A program made the translations under genes and the position numbers. A stretch of 44,526 bases of DNA. Origin: Escherichia phage vB_EcoP-101117UKE2. Positions within the stretch are counted from its first letter, which is position 1. Every line of letters starts with the position of its first letter. The notes below the pieces were generated by a model. That model ran no database searches. It was not told the origin of the DNA and saw only the letters and a list, made by a program, of their open reading frames with translations. This document shows positions 4,073-16,876 of the stretch, piece after piece. The DNA lies in sequence record MZ234019.1. One strand, given 5' to 3'.

Positions 4073-6061
4073 ATGGCTATTATTCAGAATGTACCGTGTC
4101 CTGCCTGTCAAAAGAATGGACATGATATTACTGGCAACCATCTTATGATATTTGAGGATGGCGCTGGTTACTGTAATCGTGGTCACTTCCATGATAACGG
4201 TAAGCCTTACTATCATAAGCCAGAGGGCGGCATCGAGATAACCGAATTGCCCATTACTGGCAATATCAAATACACACCTTCTCAATTCAAAGAAATGGAG
4301 AAGGAAGGGAAGATAAGCGACCCTAAGCTACGCGCCATCGCACTAGGTGGTATGCGTATGAAAGACCGTTGGGAGGTCATGAATGAGCAAGAAAGGGCAG
4401 AGCAAGAAGCAGAGTGGAAACTTGATGTTGAATGGTTCCTCACGCTTAAGCGTAAGAATCTTGTTTCCCGACACATTCGCGGCGACATTTGCGCATTGTA
4501 TGATGTACGTGTCGGACATGATGAAGAGGGTAGAGTCTCACGGCATTACTATCCACGCTTCGAGAAAGGTGAACTAGTAGGCGCTAAGTGTCGCACATTA
4601 CCTAAAGACTTTAAGTTTGGTCATTTAGGTAAACTATTTGGTATGCAAGATCTTTTCGGTATGAATACTTTGTCTCACGTGTTAGACAAGGGAAGACGAA
4701 AGGATTGCTTGCTTATTGTGGGTGGGGAACTGGATGCACTAGCAGCGCAGCAGATGCTCCTTGATTCTGCCAAGGGTACTAAGTGGGAAGGGCAGCCTTA
4801 CCATGTATGGTCTGTCAATAAGGGTGAATCTTGCCTTGAAGAAATTGTGCAGAACCGTGAGCACATCGCCCAATTCAAGAAGATTATTTGGGGCTTTGAT
4901 GGGGATGAGGTAGGACAGAAGCAGAACCAACAAGCGGCTCGCCTGTTTCCTGGCAAATCCTACATCCTTGAATACCCTTCTGGTTGCAAAGATGCCAACA
5001 AGGCATTGATGGCTGGTAAAGCCAAAGAATTTGTGGATGCTTGGTTTAATGCAAAGCCATCTGATGAAGTCTTTGGTAGCCAGATTAAATCTATCGCATC
5101 TCAAAGGGATAAGCTCAAGGCTGCACGTCCAGAACAAGGGCTGTCATGGCCTTGGCCTAAGCTAAACAAGGTAACGCTGGGTATCCGTAAGAATCAGCTT
5201 ATCATTGTAGGTGCAGGCTCTGGTGTGGGTAAGACTGAGTTCCTCCGTGAAGTAGTTAAGCATCTCATTGAAGAACACGGTGAATCTGTAGGCATCATTT
5301 CTACAGAAGACCCGATGGTTAAGGTGTCCCGTGCTTTTATCGGTAAGTGGATTGATAAGCGTATTGAGCTACCGCCAACCAATGACCCGAAAGAAGATGG
5401 ATACCGTGAGGTGTTCGACTATACCGAGGAAGAGGCTAACGCTGCCATTGACTATGTAGCTGATACAGGGAAGCTGTTTGTGGCTGACCTAGAGGGTGAC
5501 TATTCAATGGAGAAGGTAGAGCAGACCTGCCTTGAGTTTGAGGCTATGGGTATTTCTAATATCATCATTGATAACTTAACGGGGATTAAATTAGATGAGC
5601 GTGCTTTTGGTGGGAAGGTTGGTGCACTTGATGAATGCGTCAAGCGGATTGGCACTATCAAGGACAGACATGCAGTTACTATCTTCCTTGTCTCGCACCT
5701 TACTCGCCCTGCGGGAAACCGAGTCCAACACGAAGAAGGTGGCGAGGTTATCCTTTCTGACTTCCGAGGCTCAGGGGCTATCGGATTCTGGGCATCTTAC
5801 GCCTTGGGGATTGAGCGTAACACAAGAGCTGAAACGCTTGACGAAAGGACTACCACGTACATCTCATGTGTCAAAGATCGCGACCAAGGTATCTTCACCG
5901 GAACCAAGATTATGCTTAAGGGTGACATTCAAACCGGACGTTTGAGAGAACCACAGGCTAGAACAAGGTCATTTGATACAGGCGAAGCAAGGCAACAAGA
6001 AGTACCGGATTTACCGGACACTATAGAAGAGACAACCTTTGATGATGAACAGGAGTTTTGA
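4073..6061 (+). CDS. DNA primase/helicase (T7 gp4-like, 662 aa)
   Basis: N-terminal Cys4 zinc ribbon (CPACQ...CNRGHFH), helicase Walker A GAGSGVGKT, acidic C-terminus ending DDEQEF. Confidence 0.95.
   Translation: MAIIQNVPCPACQKNGHDITGNHLMIFEDGAGYCNRGHFHDNGKPYYHKPEGGIEITELPITGNIKYTPSQFKEMEKEGKISDPKLRAIALGGMRMKDRWEVMNEQERAEQEAEWKLDVEWFLTLKRKNLVSRHIRGDICALYDVRVGHDEEGRVSRHYYPRFEKGELVGAKCRTLPKDFKFGHLGKLFGMQDLFGMNTLSHVLDKGRRKDCLLIVGGELDALAAQQMLLDSAKGTKWEGQPYHVWSVNKGESCLEEIVQNREHIAQFKKIIWGFDGDEVGQKQNQQAARLFPGKSYILEYPSGCKDANKALMAGKAKEFVDAWFNAKPSDEVFGSQIKSIASQRDKLKAARPEQGLSWPWPKLNKVTLGIRKNQLIIVGAGSGVGKTEFLREVVKHLIEEHGESVGIISTEDPMVKVSRAFIGKWIDKRIELPPTNDPKEDGYREVFDYTEEEANAAIDYVADTGKLFVADLEGDYSMEKVEQTCLEFEAMGISNIIIDNLTGIKLDERAFGGKVGALDECVKRIGTIKDRHAVTIFLVSHLTRPAGNRVQHEEGGEVILSDFRGSGAIGFWASYALGIERNTRAETLDERTTTYISCVKDRDQGIFTGTKIMLKGDIQTGRLREPQARTRSFDTGEARQQEVPDLPDTIEETTFDDEQEF
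6009..6031 (+). promoter_or_regulatory. phage RNAP promoter ATTTACCGGACACTATAGAAGAG embedded in 3' end of primase gene
   Basis: Full consensus match inside coding sequence. Confidence 0.75.
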
Positions 6062-7552: not shown

Positions 7553-7660
7553 ATGCCACGTGATTATGATTCTGATTGGGACTACTATGACTCAATGAAT
7601 CCAAAACCCGAACGTTCAGATGATTACTACGAAACAGAGGCAATGTATGAAAACTATTGA
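7553..7660 (+). CDS. small acidic hypothetical protein (35 aa)
   Basis: ATG with TGGAGG RBS; MPRDYDSDWDYYDSMNPKPERSDDYYETEAMYENY; overlaps DNA polymerase start. Confidence 0.3.
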   Translation: MPRDYDSDWDYYDSMNPKPERSDDYYETEAMYENY

Positions 7661-10193
7661 TTGGAAGAAGGAAGCAGAAGGCCGCATCCTCGTCATGGAC
7701 GCAGAAGCTAAAGGTCTGCTTGATGCTATCCGCTACGGTCATCGTGAAGATGTACACATCATTTGCTGCATGGACTTGCTCACCACTGAGGAGTTCCTCT
7801 TCTTCGACCCATATGAGATGCGTGACCCTGAAGCAAGAGAACGCCTGAAGGAGTGGGAAGGCCATCAAGATGGTGACTTGGTTGACGGTGTTAACTTCCT
7901 GAAACACTGTGAAGCTATCGTGTCACAGAACTTCCTAGGGTATGACGGCCTCCTTTTTGAGAAAGCCTTCCCTGATATCTGGAAAGGTTTTAACTATACC
8001 GAAAGGCGCGGCAAGGGCAGACTCCGTGCCGACCTGTGTCCTGTGCGAGTCATGGACACGCTGGTGATGAGCCGCCTGTTAAACCCCGATAGACGCCTTC
8101 CTCCGCAAGCATATGCCAAAGGTATGGGTAACGTCGCCCCTCATTCAATTGAGGCGCACGGCATCCGTATAGGACGCTATAAGCCGGAGAATGAGGACTG
8201 GTCTAAACTAACTGACCACATGGTTCACCGTGTCCGCGAGGACGTGGCAATCGGTCGTGACCTTTTCCTGTGGCTGTACAATGGAGAGTGGACGGAGCAT
8301 AAACGCCGTGGCGTGAATAAACGCACTGGCCTAGGCATTGAGACAGCCTTCCACATGGAGTCTATTGTGGCGCTGGAGATGAGCCGTCAGGCAGAGCGTG
8401 GATTCCGTCTGGATATTGACAAAGCACTAGCGCGATGCGAAGAACTGGACGCTAAGATTGATGAGACAGTCGCAGCGTTCCGCCCTCACATGCCTATGCG
8501 TATCAAGTCTAAACCTTTTAAACCGGAAGAAAAGAATGAAGTATGCCAACGCGCAAATGAGTATGGAGCTAGCAACAATATACCTACTGTCCTTGACCCC
8601 TCACACTTTCTTCATGCCGAGAGACGAGGAGATCGCAAGACAGTATGGAGTGTCACTACTAAGTCTGGTGATTGGTCGGCTAGCGTCAAGAAAGACTTTC
8701 CTCACCTTAGAGGAAACCGTAATGACACGCCAAGCATCAAGTGGATTGGCGCTTACTCGCCTGTTACTTTCGAAGAGATTCCCTTGGGTAACAGGGATAC
8801 AGTTAAGCAAGTGCTCTATGATTATGGATGGAAAGGTGTTGAATTTAACGATACCGAGCAAGCGCATCTCGATGAGCATGGCGTATTACCCAAACCTTGG
8901 AGTGGAAAGATAAATGAGAAATCCCTTACTTTATGGCAAGAAAGAGCCGCACGTGAAGGTAAAACAGTACCAGATTGGTGCTTGGGTATCGCTGCATGGT
9001 ACATACTCGTATCCCGTCGTGGTCAGATCCTCAACCGTGGTGACGTTGAAGCCTTCGATCAGAAGGGGGCGTGGCCTTCGCAAGCTGGTGTACGAAAGTG
9101 TCGCGGCCTTATACCTGTAGCCTTTAACAAGGAATTAGGAATCAATGCGCAACAATACTACGAGAGGTATGGGTATTGGCCTACGTCTGACAAGGATGAC
9201 GGAGAGTGGCGTGTGCCAGCTATTGCTATTAGTATTGGCACTTCTACGTTCCGTATGCGTCATCGCAATGTGGTTAATATTCCTGCCCGTGGCTTGTACC
9301 CTTTACGTGATTTATTCATAGCAGGTAAAGGTAAGCTAATCCTTGGTTGTGATGGTGCAGGTCTTGAACTACGTGTACTTTCTCACTTCATGAATGACCC
9401 TGAGTACCAAGATATTGTACTGCATGGTGATATACATACTCATAACCAGATGAAGGCGGGTCTTCCTAAGCGTGATATGGCGAAGACATTTATATATGCC
9501 TTCCTTTACGGCTCTGGTATAGCTAACCTTGCAGCAGTGTGCGGTGTTACTGAGGAAGAAATGAAGGAAGTTGTGGCAAGATTCGAGATTGAATTACCAT
9601 CCCTTGCACGTCTTCGTGAGAATGTTATCGCACAAGGCAACAAGTTTGGATACTTACAAGCACCTGACGGGCATTGGGGTCGCATCCGTATGTCTGGTGG
9701 AGAACTTAAAGAGCACACTATGCTTAATGTATTACTCCAAATGACTGGCTCTTTGTGTATGAAATACGCATTGGTCAAAGCGTTTGCAGTGATGCGCAAG
9801 GAAGGTGTGGCCTTAGATAGTATGGGACACCCTTGTGGTGTAGCTAACGTGCACGATGAAATCCAGATGGAAGTACCTGAAGAAGAGGTATTGTATCTTA
9901 ACTACGACCTACCTTTCACCTTAGAGGGGTTTGAAACAGAGAAGGCTGCTGTGAAAGCAGTATTCGATGCAGAGGAGAAACGTGTTCATGTGGATTCTGA
10001 AGGACGTATGTGGTCTGCTGCAAATCTCATTAGTGTTGATGCTGCTGCTGGTGTACTTCATTGCCAGCGTCGTTATCACCGCGCAGGGCATATCATTGCC
10101 GACGCCATGACTTGGGCTGGTCAGTATCTGAAGATGCGTTGCCCGATGGCAGGCGAGTATAAGATTGGCGCAAGCTGGAAGGAAACGCACTAG
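7647..10193 (+). CDS. DNA polymerase, family A (T7 gp5-like)
   Basis: Exo motif VMDAEAKG; pol motifs DGAGLELRVLSHF, KTFIYAFLYGSG, HDEIQMEV; start chosen at ATG 7647 (GAGG RBS), alternative in-frame ATG at 7620. Confidence 0.95.
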   Translation: MKTIDWKKEAEGRILVMDAEAKGLLDAIRYGHREDVHIICCMDLLTTEEFLFFDPYEMRDPEARERLKEWEGHQDGDLVDGVNFLKHCEAIVSQNFLGYDGLLFEKAFPDIWKGFNYTERRGKGRLRADLCPVRVMDTLVMSRLLNPDRRLPPQAYAKGMGNVAPHSIEAHGIRIGRYKPENEDWSKLTDHMVHRVREDVAIGRDLFLWLYNGEWTEHKRRGVNKRTGLGIETAFHMESIVALEMSRQAERGFRLDIDKALARCEELDAKIDETVAAFRPHMPMRIKSKPFKPEEKNEVCQRANEYGASNNIPTVLDPSHFLHAERRGDRKTVWSVTTKSGDWSASVKKDFPHLRGNRNDTPSIKWIGAYSPVTFEEIPLGNRDTVKQVLYDYGWKGVEFNDTEQAHLDEHGVLPKPWSGKINEKSLTLWQERAAREGKTVPDWCLGIAAWYILVSRRGQILNRGDVEAFDQKGAWPSQAGVRKCRGLIPVAFNKELGINAQQYYERYGYWPTSDKDDGEWRVPAIAISIGTSTFRMRHRNVVNIPARGLYPLRDLFIAGKGKLILGCDGAGLELRVLSHFMNDPEYQDIVLHGDIHTHNQMKAGLPKRDMAKTFIYAFLYGSGIANLAAVCGVTEEEMKEVVARFEIELPSLARLRENVIAQGNKFGYLQAPDGHWGRIRMSGGELKEHTMLNVLLQMTGSLCMKYALVKAFAVMRKEGVALDSMGHPCGVANVHDEIQMEVPEEEVLYLNYDLPFTLEGFETEKAAVKAVFDAEEKRVHVDSEGRMWSAANLISVDAAAGVLHCQRRYHRAGHIIADAMTWAGQYLKMRCPMAGEYKIGASWKETH

Positions 10194-12071: not shown

Positions 12072-12094
12072 ATTTACTGGACACTATAGAAGAG
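12072..12094 (+). promoter_or_regulatory. phage RNAP promoter ATTTACTGGACACTATAGAAGAG
   Basis: Consensus match. Confidence 0.8.
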
Positions 12095-12512: not shown

Positions 12513-12518
12513 TTGATG

Positions 12519-12552
12519 CCCTGTCTGCCTTAGTGTAGGCAGGGTCTTTTGT
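12519..12552 (+). terminator. phage-type (T-phi-like) terminator hairpin
   Basis: Stem CCCTGTCTG/TAGGCAGGG, 8-nt loop, then TCTTTTGTG; near-identical in architecture to element at 21622. Confidence 0.55.
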
Positions 12553-12576: not shown

Positions 12577-12870
12577 ATGCCGACTATTGAAGAACGTTTC
12601 CTGATTCACGTAGACTTCTCACCCATACATCTTGGTTATCTTATCACTATTCTCTTAGGGGAGGAGGTTTATCTACATAATTACCTTATACCTGAATATG
12701 TATGTTTTAGGGATAAGATACACCCGCTTACTTGGGCACAAGAGTGGCTGCGTGAACATGTGCTGAAGGAGTGGCCTACATGCGACCAAACTTCGACTTC
12801 GGAGCTACAGTATCGGAAGACAATAATCTCATCCTGTGGCCGACTGAAGGTGAGAGAATCGCTCTCATAG
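12577..12870 (+). CDS. hypothetical protein (97 aa), overlaps exonuclease start
   Basis: ATG with GGAGA RBS; 3' part overlaps the next gene in another frame. Confidence 0.4.
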   Translation: MPTIEERFLIHVDFSPIHLGYLITILLGEEVYLHNYLIPEYVCFRDKIHPLTWAQEWLREHVLKEWPTCDQTSTSELQYRKTIISSCGRLKVRESLS

Positions 12871-13808
12871 ATGCTGACATGTTACCTTATATCGTAGGGT
12901 ACACAATCAGTGACATGACTTATGTACGAGCCACAACTCGTGTTAAGTCAGGACAAGTCCAATCAATCAAAGATACACCTGAGTGTAAGCAAGCATGTGA
13001 CCGTGTGAACTCCTTGCTTAACTCTTGGGTGTATGCAGCAGAGTGTGATGCAGCTAAGCTATTCATGACAAAATCAGAAGCTAACTTCCGTGTTCGCCTA
13101 GCATTCACCAAGCCTTATAAGGGTCAACGTAAGACCGAGAAGCCTCCATTCTTCTATGAATTACGAGAGCATCTCTTAGAGGTGCATGGTGCAATCTTGG
13201 CTGATGGTGAGGAAGCAGATGACCTAATGAGCATCGCACAATGGGACAGCCATCGCCGCTTCCAGCAAGATACAGGTAACGAGTTCCCTATCGGTAGTCC
13301 AGAGCATAAAGCATTCTCTGATACTTGCATCGTTTCCTTAGATAAGGATTTGATGATTGTTCCCGGTTGGCATCTACTGCCGGGAGGTGAGAAGAAATGG
13401 GTAGAGCCTATGGGTTGGCTTGAGCTACGCCGCAAGGCTAATGGTCAAGTGAAAGACCTTAAAGGTGCTGGCCTCATGTTCCATTATGCACAGATGATTA
13501 TCGGTGATGACATAGATAATTATGCTGGCATACCTGGGCGTGGAGCTAAATATGCCTATGATCTTCTCAAAGATTGCAAGACAGAGAAAGAGTTGTACAT
13601 GGCAGTGCTTGGTGCTTACAAGGCTAAGTTCGGACATGGACAAGTTAAGATTAAGAATTACCGAGGTGGTTATCGTATCGGCAAGGCTTTTGATCTCATG
13701 CTTGAATGTGGTCGCCTAGCTCACATGGCGAGATTCAAAGGTGATATATGGCGAGCCGATAAGAATGAAATCTTATGGGGAGAAGGTGATGGATGGCTAG
13801 TAAACTAA
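12780..13808 (+). CDS. 5'-3' exonuclease (T7 gp6-like, FEN family)
   Basis: Motifs IALIDADML, SLDKDLMIVPG, GDDIDNYAGIPGRG matching T7 gp6; ATG 12780 with AAGGAG RBS (track GTG 12771). Confidence 0.9.
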   Translation: MRPNFDFGATVSEDNNLILWPTEGERIALIDADMLPYIVGYTISDMTYVRATTRVKSGQVQSIKDTPECKQACDRVNSLLNSWVYAAECDAAKLFMTKSEANFRVRLAFTKPYKGQRKTEKPPFFYELREHLLEVHGAILADGEEADDLMSIAQWDSHRRFQQDTGNEFPIGSPEHKAFSDTCIVSLDKDLMIVPGWHLLPGGEKKWVEPMGWLELRRKANGQVKDLKGAGLMFHYAQMIIGDDIDNYAGIPGRGAKYAYDLLKDCKTEKELYMAVLGAYKAKFGHGQVKIKNYRGGYRIGKAFDLMLECGRLAHMARFKGDIWRADKNEILWGEGDGWLVN

Positions 13809-14203
13809 AATCTTCAGAGGTGGCAGCTTATAAGAAAGAGCTTATGGAGAAGCAAGGTTGGAAGTGTCCTCTGTGCGGAGGCAGCCTTAAGGCAGTAAGT
13901 CCTATCAACCGTGTACTTGACCATGATCATGAGACAGGTTTCTGTCGTGCTGTTGTGTGTCGTGGCTGCAACGGTGCAGAAGGAAAGATTAAGGGTGTTA
14001 TATCTGGCTACGGAAAGGCAGGTAATAACCGCTACTTCCAACTACAATGGTTAGAACGCCTGTATAACTACTGGAAGTTGCATAGTGCACCTCAGACAGA
14101 TAAGTTATATCATAATCATAAAACGGAGGCAGAGAAACGAGAGGCTAAAAATCGTAAGGCTCGCCTTGCTTATGCAAGAAAGAAGGAGGTTAAGAGTGGC
14201 TAA
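13793..14203 (+). CDS. endonuclease VII-type Holliday junction resolvase (136 aa)
   Basis: CPLCG...LDHDHETG...VCRGCNGAEG matches T4 endonuclease VII zinc/HNH-like signature. Confidence 0.85.
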   Translation: MASKLKSSEVAAYKKELMEKQGWKCPLCGGSLKAVSPINRVLDHDHETGFCRAVVCRGCNGAEGKIKGVISGYGKAGNNRYFQLQWLERLYNYWKLHSAPQTDKLYHNHKTEAEKREAKNRKARLAYARKKEVKSG

Positions 14204-15203
14204 ACTTCGTAGCCTTTATAAAGACTCCGAGGTGCTTGATGCAATCGAGCAAGCTACCGACGAGAAAGGTAATGTTAACTATAATGAGATGGCGAAGGTT
14301 CTATCTAGCCACCCTGTGGGTAAGAAGATCACCCGTCAACTTGCTCGCTACTGGCATGGTCAGTTCAAGAAGACCAAGAAGAATGGTGATTATTACCAGA
14401 CTCTTCTGCAAGAGGATAAGCGTATCAAAGAAGAGCGTAAGCTCAGGACTCCTGACCGCTACGAGGATTTGGCTATTGTACCATTGCCTGACTCGCCTCA
14501 TCGAAGTGTACTGGTGATCCCTGATACTCATGCACCTTATGAGCACCCAGATACCTTAGAATTCCTTGCAGCAGTGGCAGCACGTTATCGACCAGACACA
14601 GTGGTACATCTTGGAGATGAGGCAGATAAACATGCCCTGTCATTCCATGATTCGGATCCAAATTTGGACAGTGCTGGCATGGAGTTAGAGAAGGCTCGTG
14701 TCTTCATGCACAAGTTGCACAAGATGTTCCCTGTGATGCGCCTGTGTCATTCTAACCATGGCTCTATGCACTTCCGTAAGGCAAGCGCCAAGGGTATTCC
14801 AGTACAATATCTGCGTACCTATCGTGAAGTCTTCTTTCCGAATGGAGGTGGCGACCAGTGGGACTGGCAGCATACCCACGTTCTTGAGTTGCCGAATGGT
14901 GAACAGGTGGCATTCAAGCACCAACCTGCTGGCTCTGTCCTAGCAGATGCAGCACACGAGCGTATGAACCTTGTGTGTGGTCACTTGCATGGTAAGATGT
15001 CGGTAGAGTATGCACGTAATACACATGAACAGTATTGGGCTGTGCAGGGTGGCTGTCTGATTGATGAGTCCTCTCGTGCATTTGCCTATGGTCGTGAGTC
15101 TAAATACAAGCCAGCATTAGGTTGTGTGGTTATTCTGGAAGGTGTGCCTCATATTGTCCCGATGCAGACCAATAGTGACAATCGCTGGATTGGTAAGATT
15201 TAG
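14196..15203 (+). CDS. calcineurin-like metallophosphoesterase (about 335 aa)
   Basis: Motifs IPDTHAP, HLGDEAD, CHSNHG, CGHLHG; GTG start 14196 with AGGAGG RBS inside endo VII 3' end (track start 14085). Confidence 0.75.
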   Translation: MAKLRSLYKDSEVLDAIEQATDEKGNVNYNEMAKVLSSHPVGKKITRQLARYWHGQFKKTKKNGDYYQTLLQEDKRIKEERKLRTPDRYEDLAIVPLPDSPHRSVLVIPDTHAPYEHPDTLEFLAAVAARYRPDTVVHLGDEADKHALSFHDSDPNLDSAGMELEKARVFMHKLHKMFPVMRLCHSNHGSMHFRKASAKGIPVQYLRTYREVFFPNGGGDQWDWQHTHVLELPNGEQVAFKHQPAGSVLADAAHERMNLVCGHLHGKMSVEYARNTHEQYWAVQGGCLIDESSRAFAYGRESKYKPALGCVVILEGVPHIVPMQTNSDNRWIGKI

Positions 15204-15220
15204 TTGACACTATAGAACAA
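15198..15220 (+). promoter_or_regulatory. phage RNAP promoter variant ATTTAGTTGACACTATAGAACAA
   Basis: Closer to classical SP6 consensus ATTTAGGTGACACTATAG; overlaps upstream stop. Confidence 0.65.
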
Positions 15221-15271
15221 AGGGCAGGTAATGTCTTGCCCTTGATTGTATAGTGAATGGAGGAATTAATT

Positions 15272-15757
15272 ATGTCAGAGACTGATATTAGAAAGATTGA
15301 TATTGGAGAGTACGTCGTACGCCGTGCAGCTTACCGAGATGCCAACTGGAATAAACTGTGTGAAAGACTAAACAAGAAACCAGATGAGGTATTCAAAGTA
15401 TCCAGTGCAGAACCTAATTATAACTCTATCATGTTAGAAGGTGTTGAGAAGCGCGAATGGTATGCGCCTTACTTCCATGTTGTTGACTCATTGCAAGGTG
15501 AAGAACCTAACACGTTGGACAACAATATGGTTACTAAGCCGAAGCACTATGAGTTCTTCGAAGGTGTAGAAGCGATTACTATCATTGCCCGCAGCATGAC
15601 CGAGAAGCAATTCGCTGGCTATTGCATGGGTAATGCTTTGAAGTACCGCCTACGTGCAGGTAAGAAGTTCAACACTGAAGAAGACCTGAAGAAAGCAGAC
15701 TACTATAAGGAGTTATTCCAGAAGCATCGTCACGAATGTATTGATGAGGATATTTGA
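15272..15757 (+). CDS. conserved phage hypothetical protein (about 161 aa) with KPKHY and GNALKYRLRAG motifs
   Basis: ATG 15272 downstream of GGAGG; motif pattern resembles a widespread phage protein family of unknown function (recollection, unverified). Confidence 0.65.
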   Translation: MSETDIRKIDIGEYVVRRAAYRDANWNKLCERLNKKPDEVFKVSSAEPNYNSIMLEGVEKREWYAPYFHVVDSLQGEEPNTLDNNMVTKPKHYEFFEGVEAITIIARSMTEKQFAGYCMGNALKYRLRAGKKFNTEEDLKKADYYKELFQKHRHECIDEDI

Positions 15758-15758
15758 T

Positions 15759-15932
15759 ATGGAAGTTAAATTGTACAGAGGTTATTTTGGCAACTTGTAC
15801 AAAGTAAGTCGCAAGGGTTCTATATTAACATCCAATGATGAAGGTGCAACGTGGTATTTAAGTGCCTATGGTTCTGACTTAGCGTACTTTAAAGAGGCAA
15901 TAGTCAAAGGTGTGATGAAGGAGGTGAAATGA
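15759..15932 (+). CDS. hypothetical protein (57 aa)
   Basis: ATG 15759 with GAGGA RBS; track ORF begins at TTG 15741. Confidence 0.4.
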   Translation: MEVKLYRGYFGNLYKVSRKGSILTSNDEGATWYLSAYGSDLAYFKEAIVKGVMKEVK

Positions 15933-16876
15933 ACATCTTCCAATTCCTAGGCCTTCCAGAAGATCACCGCAATCATCCATTCATGCTGGTGAAACATCGC
16001 GGTGAAGTTCCTGAGAAGAAATTAACTTTTCCATGTTATGCACAGGTGAAACGAGATGGTATATTCAGTGCTGTTGTGGTGCGTAATGATGGTGCTGTTG
16101 CCATCTTTGGTCGTACTGGTAAGAAGCTCGCAAATGTTGAAGCCTTGGAAAAGACATTTAGTGTATTTCCTGTCGGGTTGTATCTTGGTGAGTTGCAATC
16201 TATGGCTGTTGATGTTTATCTTGAAGCTCTATCAGGAGTGGTAAACCCTAATCGTACAGAGCCACTTGATTTCATAGGCCAGCAGATTAAAGACAACCTG
16301 TATATCGACTTCTTCGATATGTTAACCATTAAGGCATTCCATGACGGATTCACTGATGTTTCTTATCTCAAACGTTACGATGCTTTATATCGTCGCATCG
16401 GCACTCATCTTAGCGGGTACAACGCTATCCTTCCTATTACTCCTTGCCATAATGAGCGAGAAGTTGAAGCATTTGCGCAAGAGCAAATAGATGCAGGCCG
16501 AGAGGGTGCTGTGTTTAAACTGGACTGCGATTACGAAGCAGGCCATAAAGGTTATCGTCAGACTAAAGAAGTCCGTAAGGTAACTTATGACCTTACTTGT
16601 ATTGGCTTTGAAGAAGGCAAAGGTAAGTACAAGGGTAAGGTAGCTAACCTCATTTTCAAATGGAAAGGAGGCAAGACAATCAAAGCTATGCTAGGTAAGG
16701 GGTGGACTCATGCAGATGCAGAACAGATGTTCCATGATATTAAACATGGCGGACGATTGAATGTCATTGGTAAAATCTTTGAAGTCAAAGGTCTTCAGGA
16801 TTCAAGCAAGGGCAACATTCGTCAGCCCAAAGCGGGAGAATTAAGACATGACAAAGATGAACCAGATTTCTTTTGA
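15929..16876 (+). CDS. ATP-dependent DNA ligase (315 aa)
   Basis: Adenylation motif AQVKRDG (KxDG), EGAVFK; GGAGG RBS. Confidence 0.9.
   Translation: MNIFQFLGLPEDHRNHPFMLVKHRGEVPEKKLTFPCYAQVKRDGIFSAVVVRNDGAVAIFGRTGKKLANVEALEKTFSVFPVGLYLGELQSMAVDVYLEALSGVVNPNRTEPLDFIGQQIKDNLYIDFFDMLTIKAFHDGFTDVSYLKRYDALYRRIGTHLSGYNAILPITPCHNEREVEAFAQEQIDAGREGAVFKLDCDYEAGHKGYRQTKEVRKVTYDLTCIGFEEGKGKYKGKVANLIFKWKGGKTIKAMLGKGWTHADAEQMFHDIKHGGRLNVIGKIFEVKGLQDSSKGNIRQPKAGELRHDKDEPDFF

Follow-up and report, generated by a model that had tools for sequence, protein, structure and literature searches.

The gene considered here, at positions 14196–15203 of Escherichia phage vB_EcoP-101117UKE2 (record MZ234019.1), has studied, if remote, relatives among the metallophosphoesterases of cluster A phages; PHROG 221, which it matches, includes Bxb1 gp47, L5 gp54, and A10ZJ24 gp48. 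In Bxb1, gp47 serves the serine integrase as its recombination directionality factor; phages with tyrosine integrases have homologues as well, located between the genes for polymerase and primase, and an involvement in replication was suggested early on (PMC1470463). Bxb1 gp47 is needed for phage DNA replication according to Savinov et al. 2012, as cited in PMC11795197. The protein has a weak Mn2+/Mg2+-dependent 3′ exonuclease activity, and its predicted structure was compared with that of the DP1 exonuclease (5IHE), DP1 and Mre11 being among the structural matches (PMC11795197). A10ZJ24 gp48 is expressed early, has phosphodiesterase activity, and is toxic to the host; in vitro it degrades linear, plasmid (circular), and genomic DNA, and in vivo the chromosome of its host (PMC12287305). 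Replication of the phage DNA depends on it in M. tuberculosis, not in M. smegmatis (PMC12287305). The D10G substitution abolishes both its phosphodiesterase activity and the genome damage, and toxicity is lost with D10G, D41V, and H175D (PMC12287305). Comparison with these proteins makes it reasonably probable, in our view, that the Escherichia phage gene encodes an Mn2+/Mg2+-dependent DNA phosphodiesterase, i.e., a nuclease, of the middle, DNA-metabolism gene class. All coordinates below refer to the window, that is, the whole stretch of 44,526 nucleotides that was analysed, and the phosphoesterase gene with its features, the other genes of its block, and the promoters lie on its + strand.

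Family membership, catalytic core, and fold

The predicted protein of 335 amino acids (aa) matched PHROG 221 over residues 2–334 (E 4.9e-105), as did Bxb1 gp47 itself (NC_002656; E 4.5e-116), and it scored 21.5 bits with the Pfam model Metallophos. We retrieved 2807 homologues from a set of 5.8 billion proteins, and tblastn matches were found in 652 phage records; the calcineurin-like metallophosphoesterase identity proposed in the first-pass annotation, made from the sequence alone, is thus well founded. Because a PHROG is a remote-homology cluster, the link with gp47 was tested independently. An alignment of 27 homologues compared with gp47 by hhalign gave a probability of 89.5% (E 2e-6) over 191 columns covering motifs I–VI and the G-C/H-L-x-D motif, against 9.7% over 80 columns for lambda NinI. 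A hidden Markov model (HMM) built only from 81 stand-alone cores, themselves retrieved with the profile of the window protein, gave 40.0 bits for gp47 and 7.6 bits for lambda NinI; none of 200 shuffled versions of gp47 exceeded 0.5 bits. The relationship between the window protein and gp47, as judged from these comparisons, appears remote but specific. The two proteins share the order of their motifs, including P-D-T-x-x-P-[YF], V-V-H-[IL]-G-D, G-H-x-H, and G-[CH]-L-x-D, and both genes sit among those for replication/DNA metabolism, not far from one for endonuclease VII; gp47 differs in lacking the N-terminal domain described below, in carrying insertions, and in having GNHD where the window protein has SNHG.

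Residues ~101–335 (14496..15200) are predicted to make up the binuclear metallophosphoesterase core, complete and competent for catalysis. Motif I, D110-T-H112 (14523..14531), is invariant, as judged for all motifs on the alignment of 27 homologues, which reaches down to 49% identity, and it aligns to D10 of Bxb1 gp47. In motif II, G140-D141-E142-A-D144-K-H146 (14613..14633), the G, D, E, D, and H are invariant and D141 aligns to gp47 D41. Motif III, S186-N187-H188 (14751..14759), is likewise invariant; it is the equivalent of GNH[D/E] and was aligned by MAFFT to the GNHD of gp47. The invariant H242 (14919..14921) makes up motif IV, the motif order suggesting that it is a metal ligand, and the invariant G262-H263-L-H265 (14979..14990) makes up motifs V/VI, with H263 aligned to gp47 H175. 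A family-specific motif follows, G286-C-L-I-D290 (15051..15065), which reads GHLMD in Bxb1 gp47. The core motifs also persist across the distant stand-alone cores. Counted on Bxb1 gp47, D10 and D41 are the Asp residues of motifs I and II, and H175 is the first His of GHxH; their counterparts in the window protein are D110, D141, and H263.

Of the features of the PF00149 superfamily, D-x-H, G-D-x-x-D, the motif IV His, G-H-x-H, a score at the Pfam gathering level, and the beta-sandwich fold are present. Motif III is flanked by Ser and Gly (S-N-H-G), in contrast to G-N-H-[D/E] in the superfamily, with N187-H188 remaining invariant. The signatures of PPP Ser/Thr phosphatases are absent, since GDEADKH stands in place of GDxxDRG and SNHG in place of GNHE. 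The first-pass annotation had reported the ordered motifs DxH, GDxxD, NH, and GHxH together with this deviation from the Ser/Thr phosphatase pattern, and both observations were borne out; the loss of metal-ligand residues, which it named as a reason to abandon the assignment, was not seen in the 27 homologues, where every ligand is invariant.

A fold search returned the DP1 exonuclease (5IHE), the very structure with which gp47 was compared in PMC11795197, as its top solved-structure match, with 189 of 440 residues aligned at 13% identity, in the phosphoesterase core only. The fold comparison gave values of about 11–12 for the B-subunits of eukaryotic replicative polymerases, 11.4 for LpxH, 10–11.3 for Mre11 and SbcD, 9.5–9.7 for cyclic-nucleotide phosphodiesterases, 8.9 for the PnkP phosphatase domain, and 8.8 for lambda phosphatase. 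The modelled fold confirms the metallophosphoesterase superfamily and leaves the substrate undecided; the comparison with Mre11/SbcD, lambda phosphatase, and cyclic-nucleotide phosphodiesterases that had been suggested as a check, thus, secured the superfamily and did not discriminate between substrates. Searched against the PDB at the sequence level, neither the protein by itself nor the family profile gave a meaningful match, to Mre11/SbcD or to any other entry.

DP1, the small subunit of PolD and an Mre11-like 3′–5′ proofreading exonuclease, has an OB-fold and a DP2 partner, both lacking here. In contrast to Mre11/SbcD, the window protein ends right after the core, with no capping domain, and the annotation of the phage genome lists no ATPase of the Rad50/SbcC type as a partner. 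An analogy with Mre11-Rad50 was also considered through a match of endonuclease VII residues 8–42 to Rad50_zn_hook; it was set aside, as the match (17.1 bits for a cut-off of 24.3) most likely reflects the CxxC zinc site of endonuclease VII only. The small phosphodiesterases of the YfcE/MJ0936 type and Vps29 differ as well: the YfcE model TIGR00040 gave 11 bits for a cut-off of 56, and in YfcE/MJ0936-type enzymes a Cys replaces the motif III His (GNCD), whereas the window protein retains His188. PdeM (TIGR04123, ligase-associated DNA damage response endonuclease) reached 21.9 bits for a cut-off of 150, over residues 114–146 only; YfcE and PdeM were both rejected as family assignments, their NCBIfam matches being sub-threshold.

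Gene model, N-terminal domain, and inteins

The gene is real and intact, and it was annotated as a ‘phosphoesterase’ before this analysis. The + strand frame is open without a break from 14085 to 15203, and the GenBank protein QZI79645.1 begins at an ATG located at window position 14172. We place the start at the GTG at 14196 (14196..15203, 335 aa plus stop codon). A strong Shine-Dalgarno sequence, AAGGAGG (14183..14189), can be read inside the endonuclease VII gene, 6 nt before this GTG, and a junction alignment of five phages shows that GGAGG and the start codon (GTG/TTG/ATG) are kept; in the same alignment, the ATG at 14172, which has no Shine-Dalgarno sequence, reads TAC in SP6. A length of 335 aa is also that of nearly all the close homologues, of SP6 gene 23, and of the Proteus phage annotations. 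Given the conserved Shine-Dalgarno sequence and start codon, the family-typical length, and the TAC of SP6, GTG 14196 is a better gene model than ATG 14172, and the start in the GenBank record is probably mis-annotated.

The region 13700–15300 of the window is identical to that of Escherichia phage vB_EcoP-101118B1 (MZ234020.1; a window coordinate equals the MZ234020.1 coordinate plus 55), which is classified in Vectrevirus, Molineuxvirinae, Autographiviridae, in the SP6/K1E group, and whose record includes QZI79645.1. Product names of the homologues are inconsistent or misleading from one record to another: close relatives have a metallo-phosphoesterase, a calcineurin-like phosphoesterase, or a hypothetical protein, SP6 gene 23 (AY288927.2) is a ‘metalloprotease’, and the homologues in Vibrio phage Vc1 and an Aeromonas phage are labelled ‘phosphatase 2a-like protein’. 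Vc1 itself is filed under Drexlerviridae despite an SP6-like gene order at this locus. In one record of Escherichia phage K1E (KY435490, locus 800–1806), a deletion of 1 nt right after the motif III His codon (window ~14760) splits the gene into ORFs (open reading frames) of 237 and 104 aa. The two corresponding BFVD entries (104 and 237 aa) were considered as a natural split between N-terminal domain and core, an idea dropped once the alignment revealed the 1-nt deletion after motif III. In Klebsiella phage IME184, the phosphoesterase is likewise annotated in pieces, of 106 and 229 aa.

The first 98 residues (14196..14489) form a small, basic, helical domain in which L36, L49, Y52, and W53 are invariant. 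Searching 1.84 billion representative proteins with a profile yielded 3181 relatives, most of which align over residues ~100–335 only, many of them being stand-alone proteins of 220–250 aa; residues 1–98 are, therefore, a lineage-specific domain, limited to the SP6-like, Colwellvirinae, and Vibrio/Aeromonas subgroup. The profile of this domain alone, searched against the 5.8-billion-protein set, retrieved only five fragments of the same gene and no other domain context. It is probably of the helix-turn-helix type and probably helps DNA binding. Other family members have different N-terminal extensions that are helix-turn-helix-like, and that of the homologue P0184 passes the Pfam HTH_24 threshold (27.4 vs. 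21.9 bits); as DNA-binding-type domains have been repeatedly fused to this core, DNA is indirectly supported as the substrate.

Inteins interrupt the core of some homologues at three sites, each directly after a catalytic-motif residue (the equivalents of H112, E142, and H188). Among metagenomic homologues, one is inserted after D-L-H in P0156, where it carries a LAGLIDADG_3 (homing endonuclease) domain; others are found after G-D-E in P0121, P0133, and P0155, and another after G-N-H in P0270, with a weak Hint_2 match. A version of 637 aa exists in Proteus phage vB_PmiP_RS8pmA (BFVD A0A514CY74). Such placement fits a conserved, functionally constrained active site, and it is a trait shared with the gp47 group: an intein beside a conserved motif was described in mycobacteriophage gp47 homologues, and inteins at active sites are typical for phage DNA-metabolism enzymes (PMC5050341).

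Genomic neighbourhood and transcription

Directly upstream lies a gene for an endonuclease VII of the Holliday-junction resolvase type (13793..14203; Pfam PF02945, Endonuclease_7, 1.2e-12; PHROG 423, 2.2e-47). The start of the phosphoesterase gene overlaps its last 8 nt (GTGGCTAA), in agreement with the earlier reading of a start inside the 3′ end of a resolvase gene. This overlap suggests translational coupling of the phosphoesterase to endonuclease VII, which we regard as probable. The two genes abut or are separated by 11 nt in Vibrio phage Vc1 and Pseudomonas phage Ulitu01, so the overlap is a lineage-specific, local detail.

The two genes belong to a conserved block, which begins with a 5′–3′ exonuclease of the T7 gp6 type (12780..13808; PHROG 107, 6.7e-72, and GenBank annotation), continues directly downstream of the phosphoesterase with a deoxynucleoside monophosphate (dNMP) kinase of the T7 gp1.7 type (15272..15757; Pfam DUF3310, 2.5e-25, PHROG 1689, and GenBank), and ends with an ATP-dependent DNA ligase (15929..16876; Pfam DNA_ligase_A_M and OB_2, PHROG 114). 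The order exonuclease–endonuclease VII–phosphoesterase–(d)NMP kinase–ligase is kept in SP6, Proteus phage MidiMira, Vc1, and Ulitu01, with protein identities of 48–93%, conservation extending down to 48–56%. In Drulisvirus SU552A, the phosphoesterase gene comes two genes after that of the DNA polymerase, with the exonuclease and endonuclease VII genes ~3 kb downstream, and in Bxb1 the gp47 gene sits between the polymerase and primase genes, with endonuclease VII ~2 kb away. The linkage is not universal: in three distant contexts outside Autographiviridae, a marine siphovirus and two metagenomic contigs, the homologous gene adjoins or lies near lysis genes (Phage_lysozyme, a peptidase M15A plus a holin) and not replication genes, which may mark an operon boundary. 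Around the two metagenomic homologues there was little to learn from, namely small unknown genes and a lysozyme gene close by.

Ten SP6-type promoters were found in the window, for 0.01 expected by chance, at 6009, 6951, 10378, 10841, 12072, 15198, 20340, 37809, 40162, and 44203, all on the + strand, with the consensus A-T-T-T-A-c/g-t/c-G/T-GACACTATAGAA. These phage RNA polymerase promoters define the transcription units of the genome. Those at 12072 and 15198 bracket a unit holding the exonuclease, endonuclease VII, and phosphoesterase genes; the second one, ATTTAGTTGACACTATAGAA (15198..15217), overlaps the phosphoesterase stop codon, at the end of its transcription unit. It shares part of its sequence with a strong hairpin at 15208–15255 (dG -25.3 kcal/mol, z -6.05) that has no U-tract and that might be processed by RNase III or terminate read-through transcription. 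In the relative vB_EcoP_R4596, a ‘terminator’ is annotated within the matched stretch. Another hairpin, terminator-like, is found at 12518–12545. Sigma-70 promoter-like sites are no commoner in the window than in shuffled sequence and are, thus, uninformative, and a scan of the whole window with Rfam returned no match.

Substrate, role, and competing explanations

The first-pass annotation held that the substrate could not be deduced and listed a nuclease, a nucleotide phosphodiesterase, and an enzyme degrading host signalling nucleotides as candidates. The former statement was too pessimistic, as the gp47/gp48 family has published DNA-directed activities (PMC11795197, PMC12287305); within the list, the nuclease is now clearly favoured and the other two have less support. 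By homology to gp47-type proteins, the core would hydrolyse DNA phosphodiester bonds with Mn2+/Mg2+, as an exo- and/or endonuclease. The gene is transcribed by the phage RNA polymerase together with the DNA-metabolism genes, and its product may act alongside the 5′–3′ exonuclease and endonuclease VII. Two roles can be envisaged. The enzyme may help degrade the chromosome of the host, supplying nucleotides for salvage through the neighbouring dNMP kinase and silencing host genes, those of defence included, or it may trim replication or recombination intermediates.

One has to keep in mind several points that weigh against a DNA nuclease. Pairwise BLASTP against gp47 recovers motifs I–II only (42 residues, E 4e-5), i.e., remote similarity, and gp47 itself has a Gln in place of H112. 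In the structural model, the two most conserved loops, residues 146–153 and 189–205, have a pLDDT (predicted local distance difference test) below 50, so that the substrate-binding geometry cannot be read from it. To our knowledge, T7 breaks down host DNA and replicates without such a protein. The K1E deletion may be a sequencing error; if it is instead a natural knock-out, the gene would be dispensable on a laboratory host. Finally, the exonuclease activity published for gp47 is weak (PMC11795197).

A possible, if unlikely, variant is that the protein is a counter-defence and host-range factor. Its N-terminal domain would guide the nuclease towards the DNA of the host or towards DNA of a particular structure; alternatively, its core would hydrolyse an immune signalling nucleotide. 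The frameshifted K1E record is consistent with dispensability on permissive laboratory hosts. With a nuclease guided in this way, host transcription, defence genes included, could be shut off early, as reported for A10ZJ24 gp48 in M. tuberculosis.

It is rather improbable that the enzyme is a nucleotide or cyclic-(oligo)nucleotide phosphodiesterase, which would tune nucleotide pools beside the dNMP kinase or destroy the signals of CBASS, Thoeris, or type III CRISPR systems. The helix-turn-helix fusions in relatives argue against it, as do the low score with the YfcE model given above and the absence of any PADLOC match. As far as is known, the phage enzymes that counter such signalling, Acb1 and Apyc1, have other folds. 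Furthermore, the characterised family members act on DNA (PMC12287305, PMC11795197).

Another candidate is a trans-acting 3′–5′ editing exonuclease that would partner the phage replisome much as DP1 partners PolD; we see a low probability for it. In contrast to PolD, the phage DNA polymerase (7620–10193) is of family A, the only domain that Pfam sees in it (residues 542–761), and its N-terminus displays an Exo I-like VMDAEAKGL and an Exo II-like NFLGYDGLLF; judging from these motifs, it probably proofreads for itself, and a dedicated proofreader would, thus, be unneeded. The Bxb1 polymerase similarly has a Pfam 3′–5′ exonuclease domain. The lack in the window protein of a DP1-like OB-fold or any polymerase-docking domain and the frameshift in the K1E record also speak against editing.

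An end-healing enzyme, either a 3′-phosphatase or a 2′,3′-cyclic phosphodiesterase, would resemble the phosphatase domain of bacterial PnkP and ready nucleic-acid ends for the neighbouring kinase and ligase. We find this explanation quite improbable. Still harder to credit is an enzyme that, as lambda NinI does, dephosphorylates Ser/Thr (or Tyr) residues of proteins. NinI is likewise phage-encoded, belongs to the same superfamily, and has motifs I–III in common with the window protein; the ‘phosphatase 2a-like’ labels in Vc1 and the Aeromonas phage point the same way, against which stand the missing PPP signatures and the low NinI scores in both profile comparisons. Least credible of all is a chiefly non-catalytic cofactor acting through protein–protein contact, as Bxb1 gp47 does in controlling its serine integrase (PMC1470463), or the protease that the SP6 name for gene 23 implies: none of the 60 annotated genes of this virulent member of the Autographiviridae is an integrase gene, which excludes a recombination directionality role, the invariance of every metal ligand argues for catalysis, and a protease finds no support in Pfam, PHROGs, or the fold search.

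The phosphoesterase is an ordinary member of a known, catalogued phage family with studied remote homologues and represents no new kind of enzyme or type of system. The present analysis ties the SP6-type phosphoesterases specifically to gp47/gp48, identifies an N-terminal domain particular to one lineage, and corrects the start codon. Several hundred genomes of Autographiviridae have kept the gene; many belong to phages of Klebsiella, E. coli K1, and Salmonella, of types under study for therapy, and the gp47/gp48 link gives the product a concrete, testable function, that of a DNA nuclease which replication or the defeat of host defences would require. Should the counter-defence role prove true, therapeutic phages of the SP6, K1E, and KP34 types would gain an unrecognised anti-defence gene, dispensable on permissive laboratory hosts.

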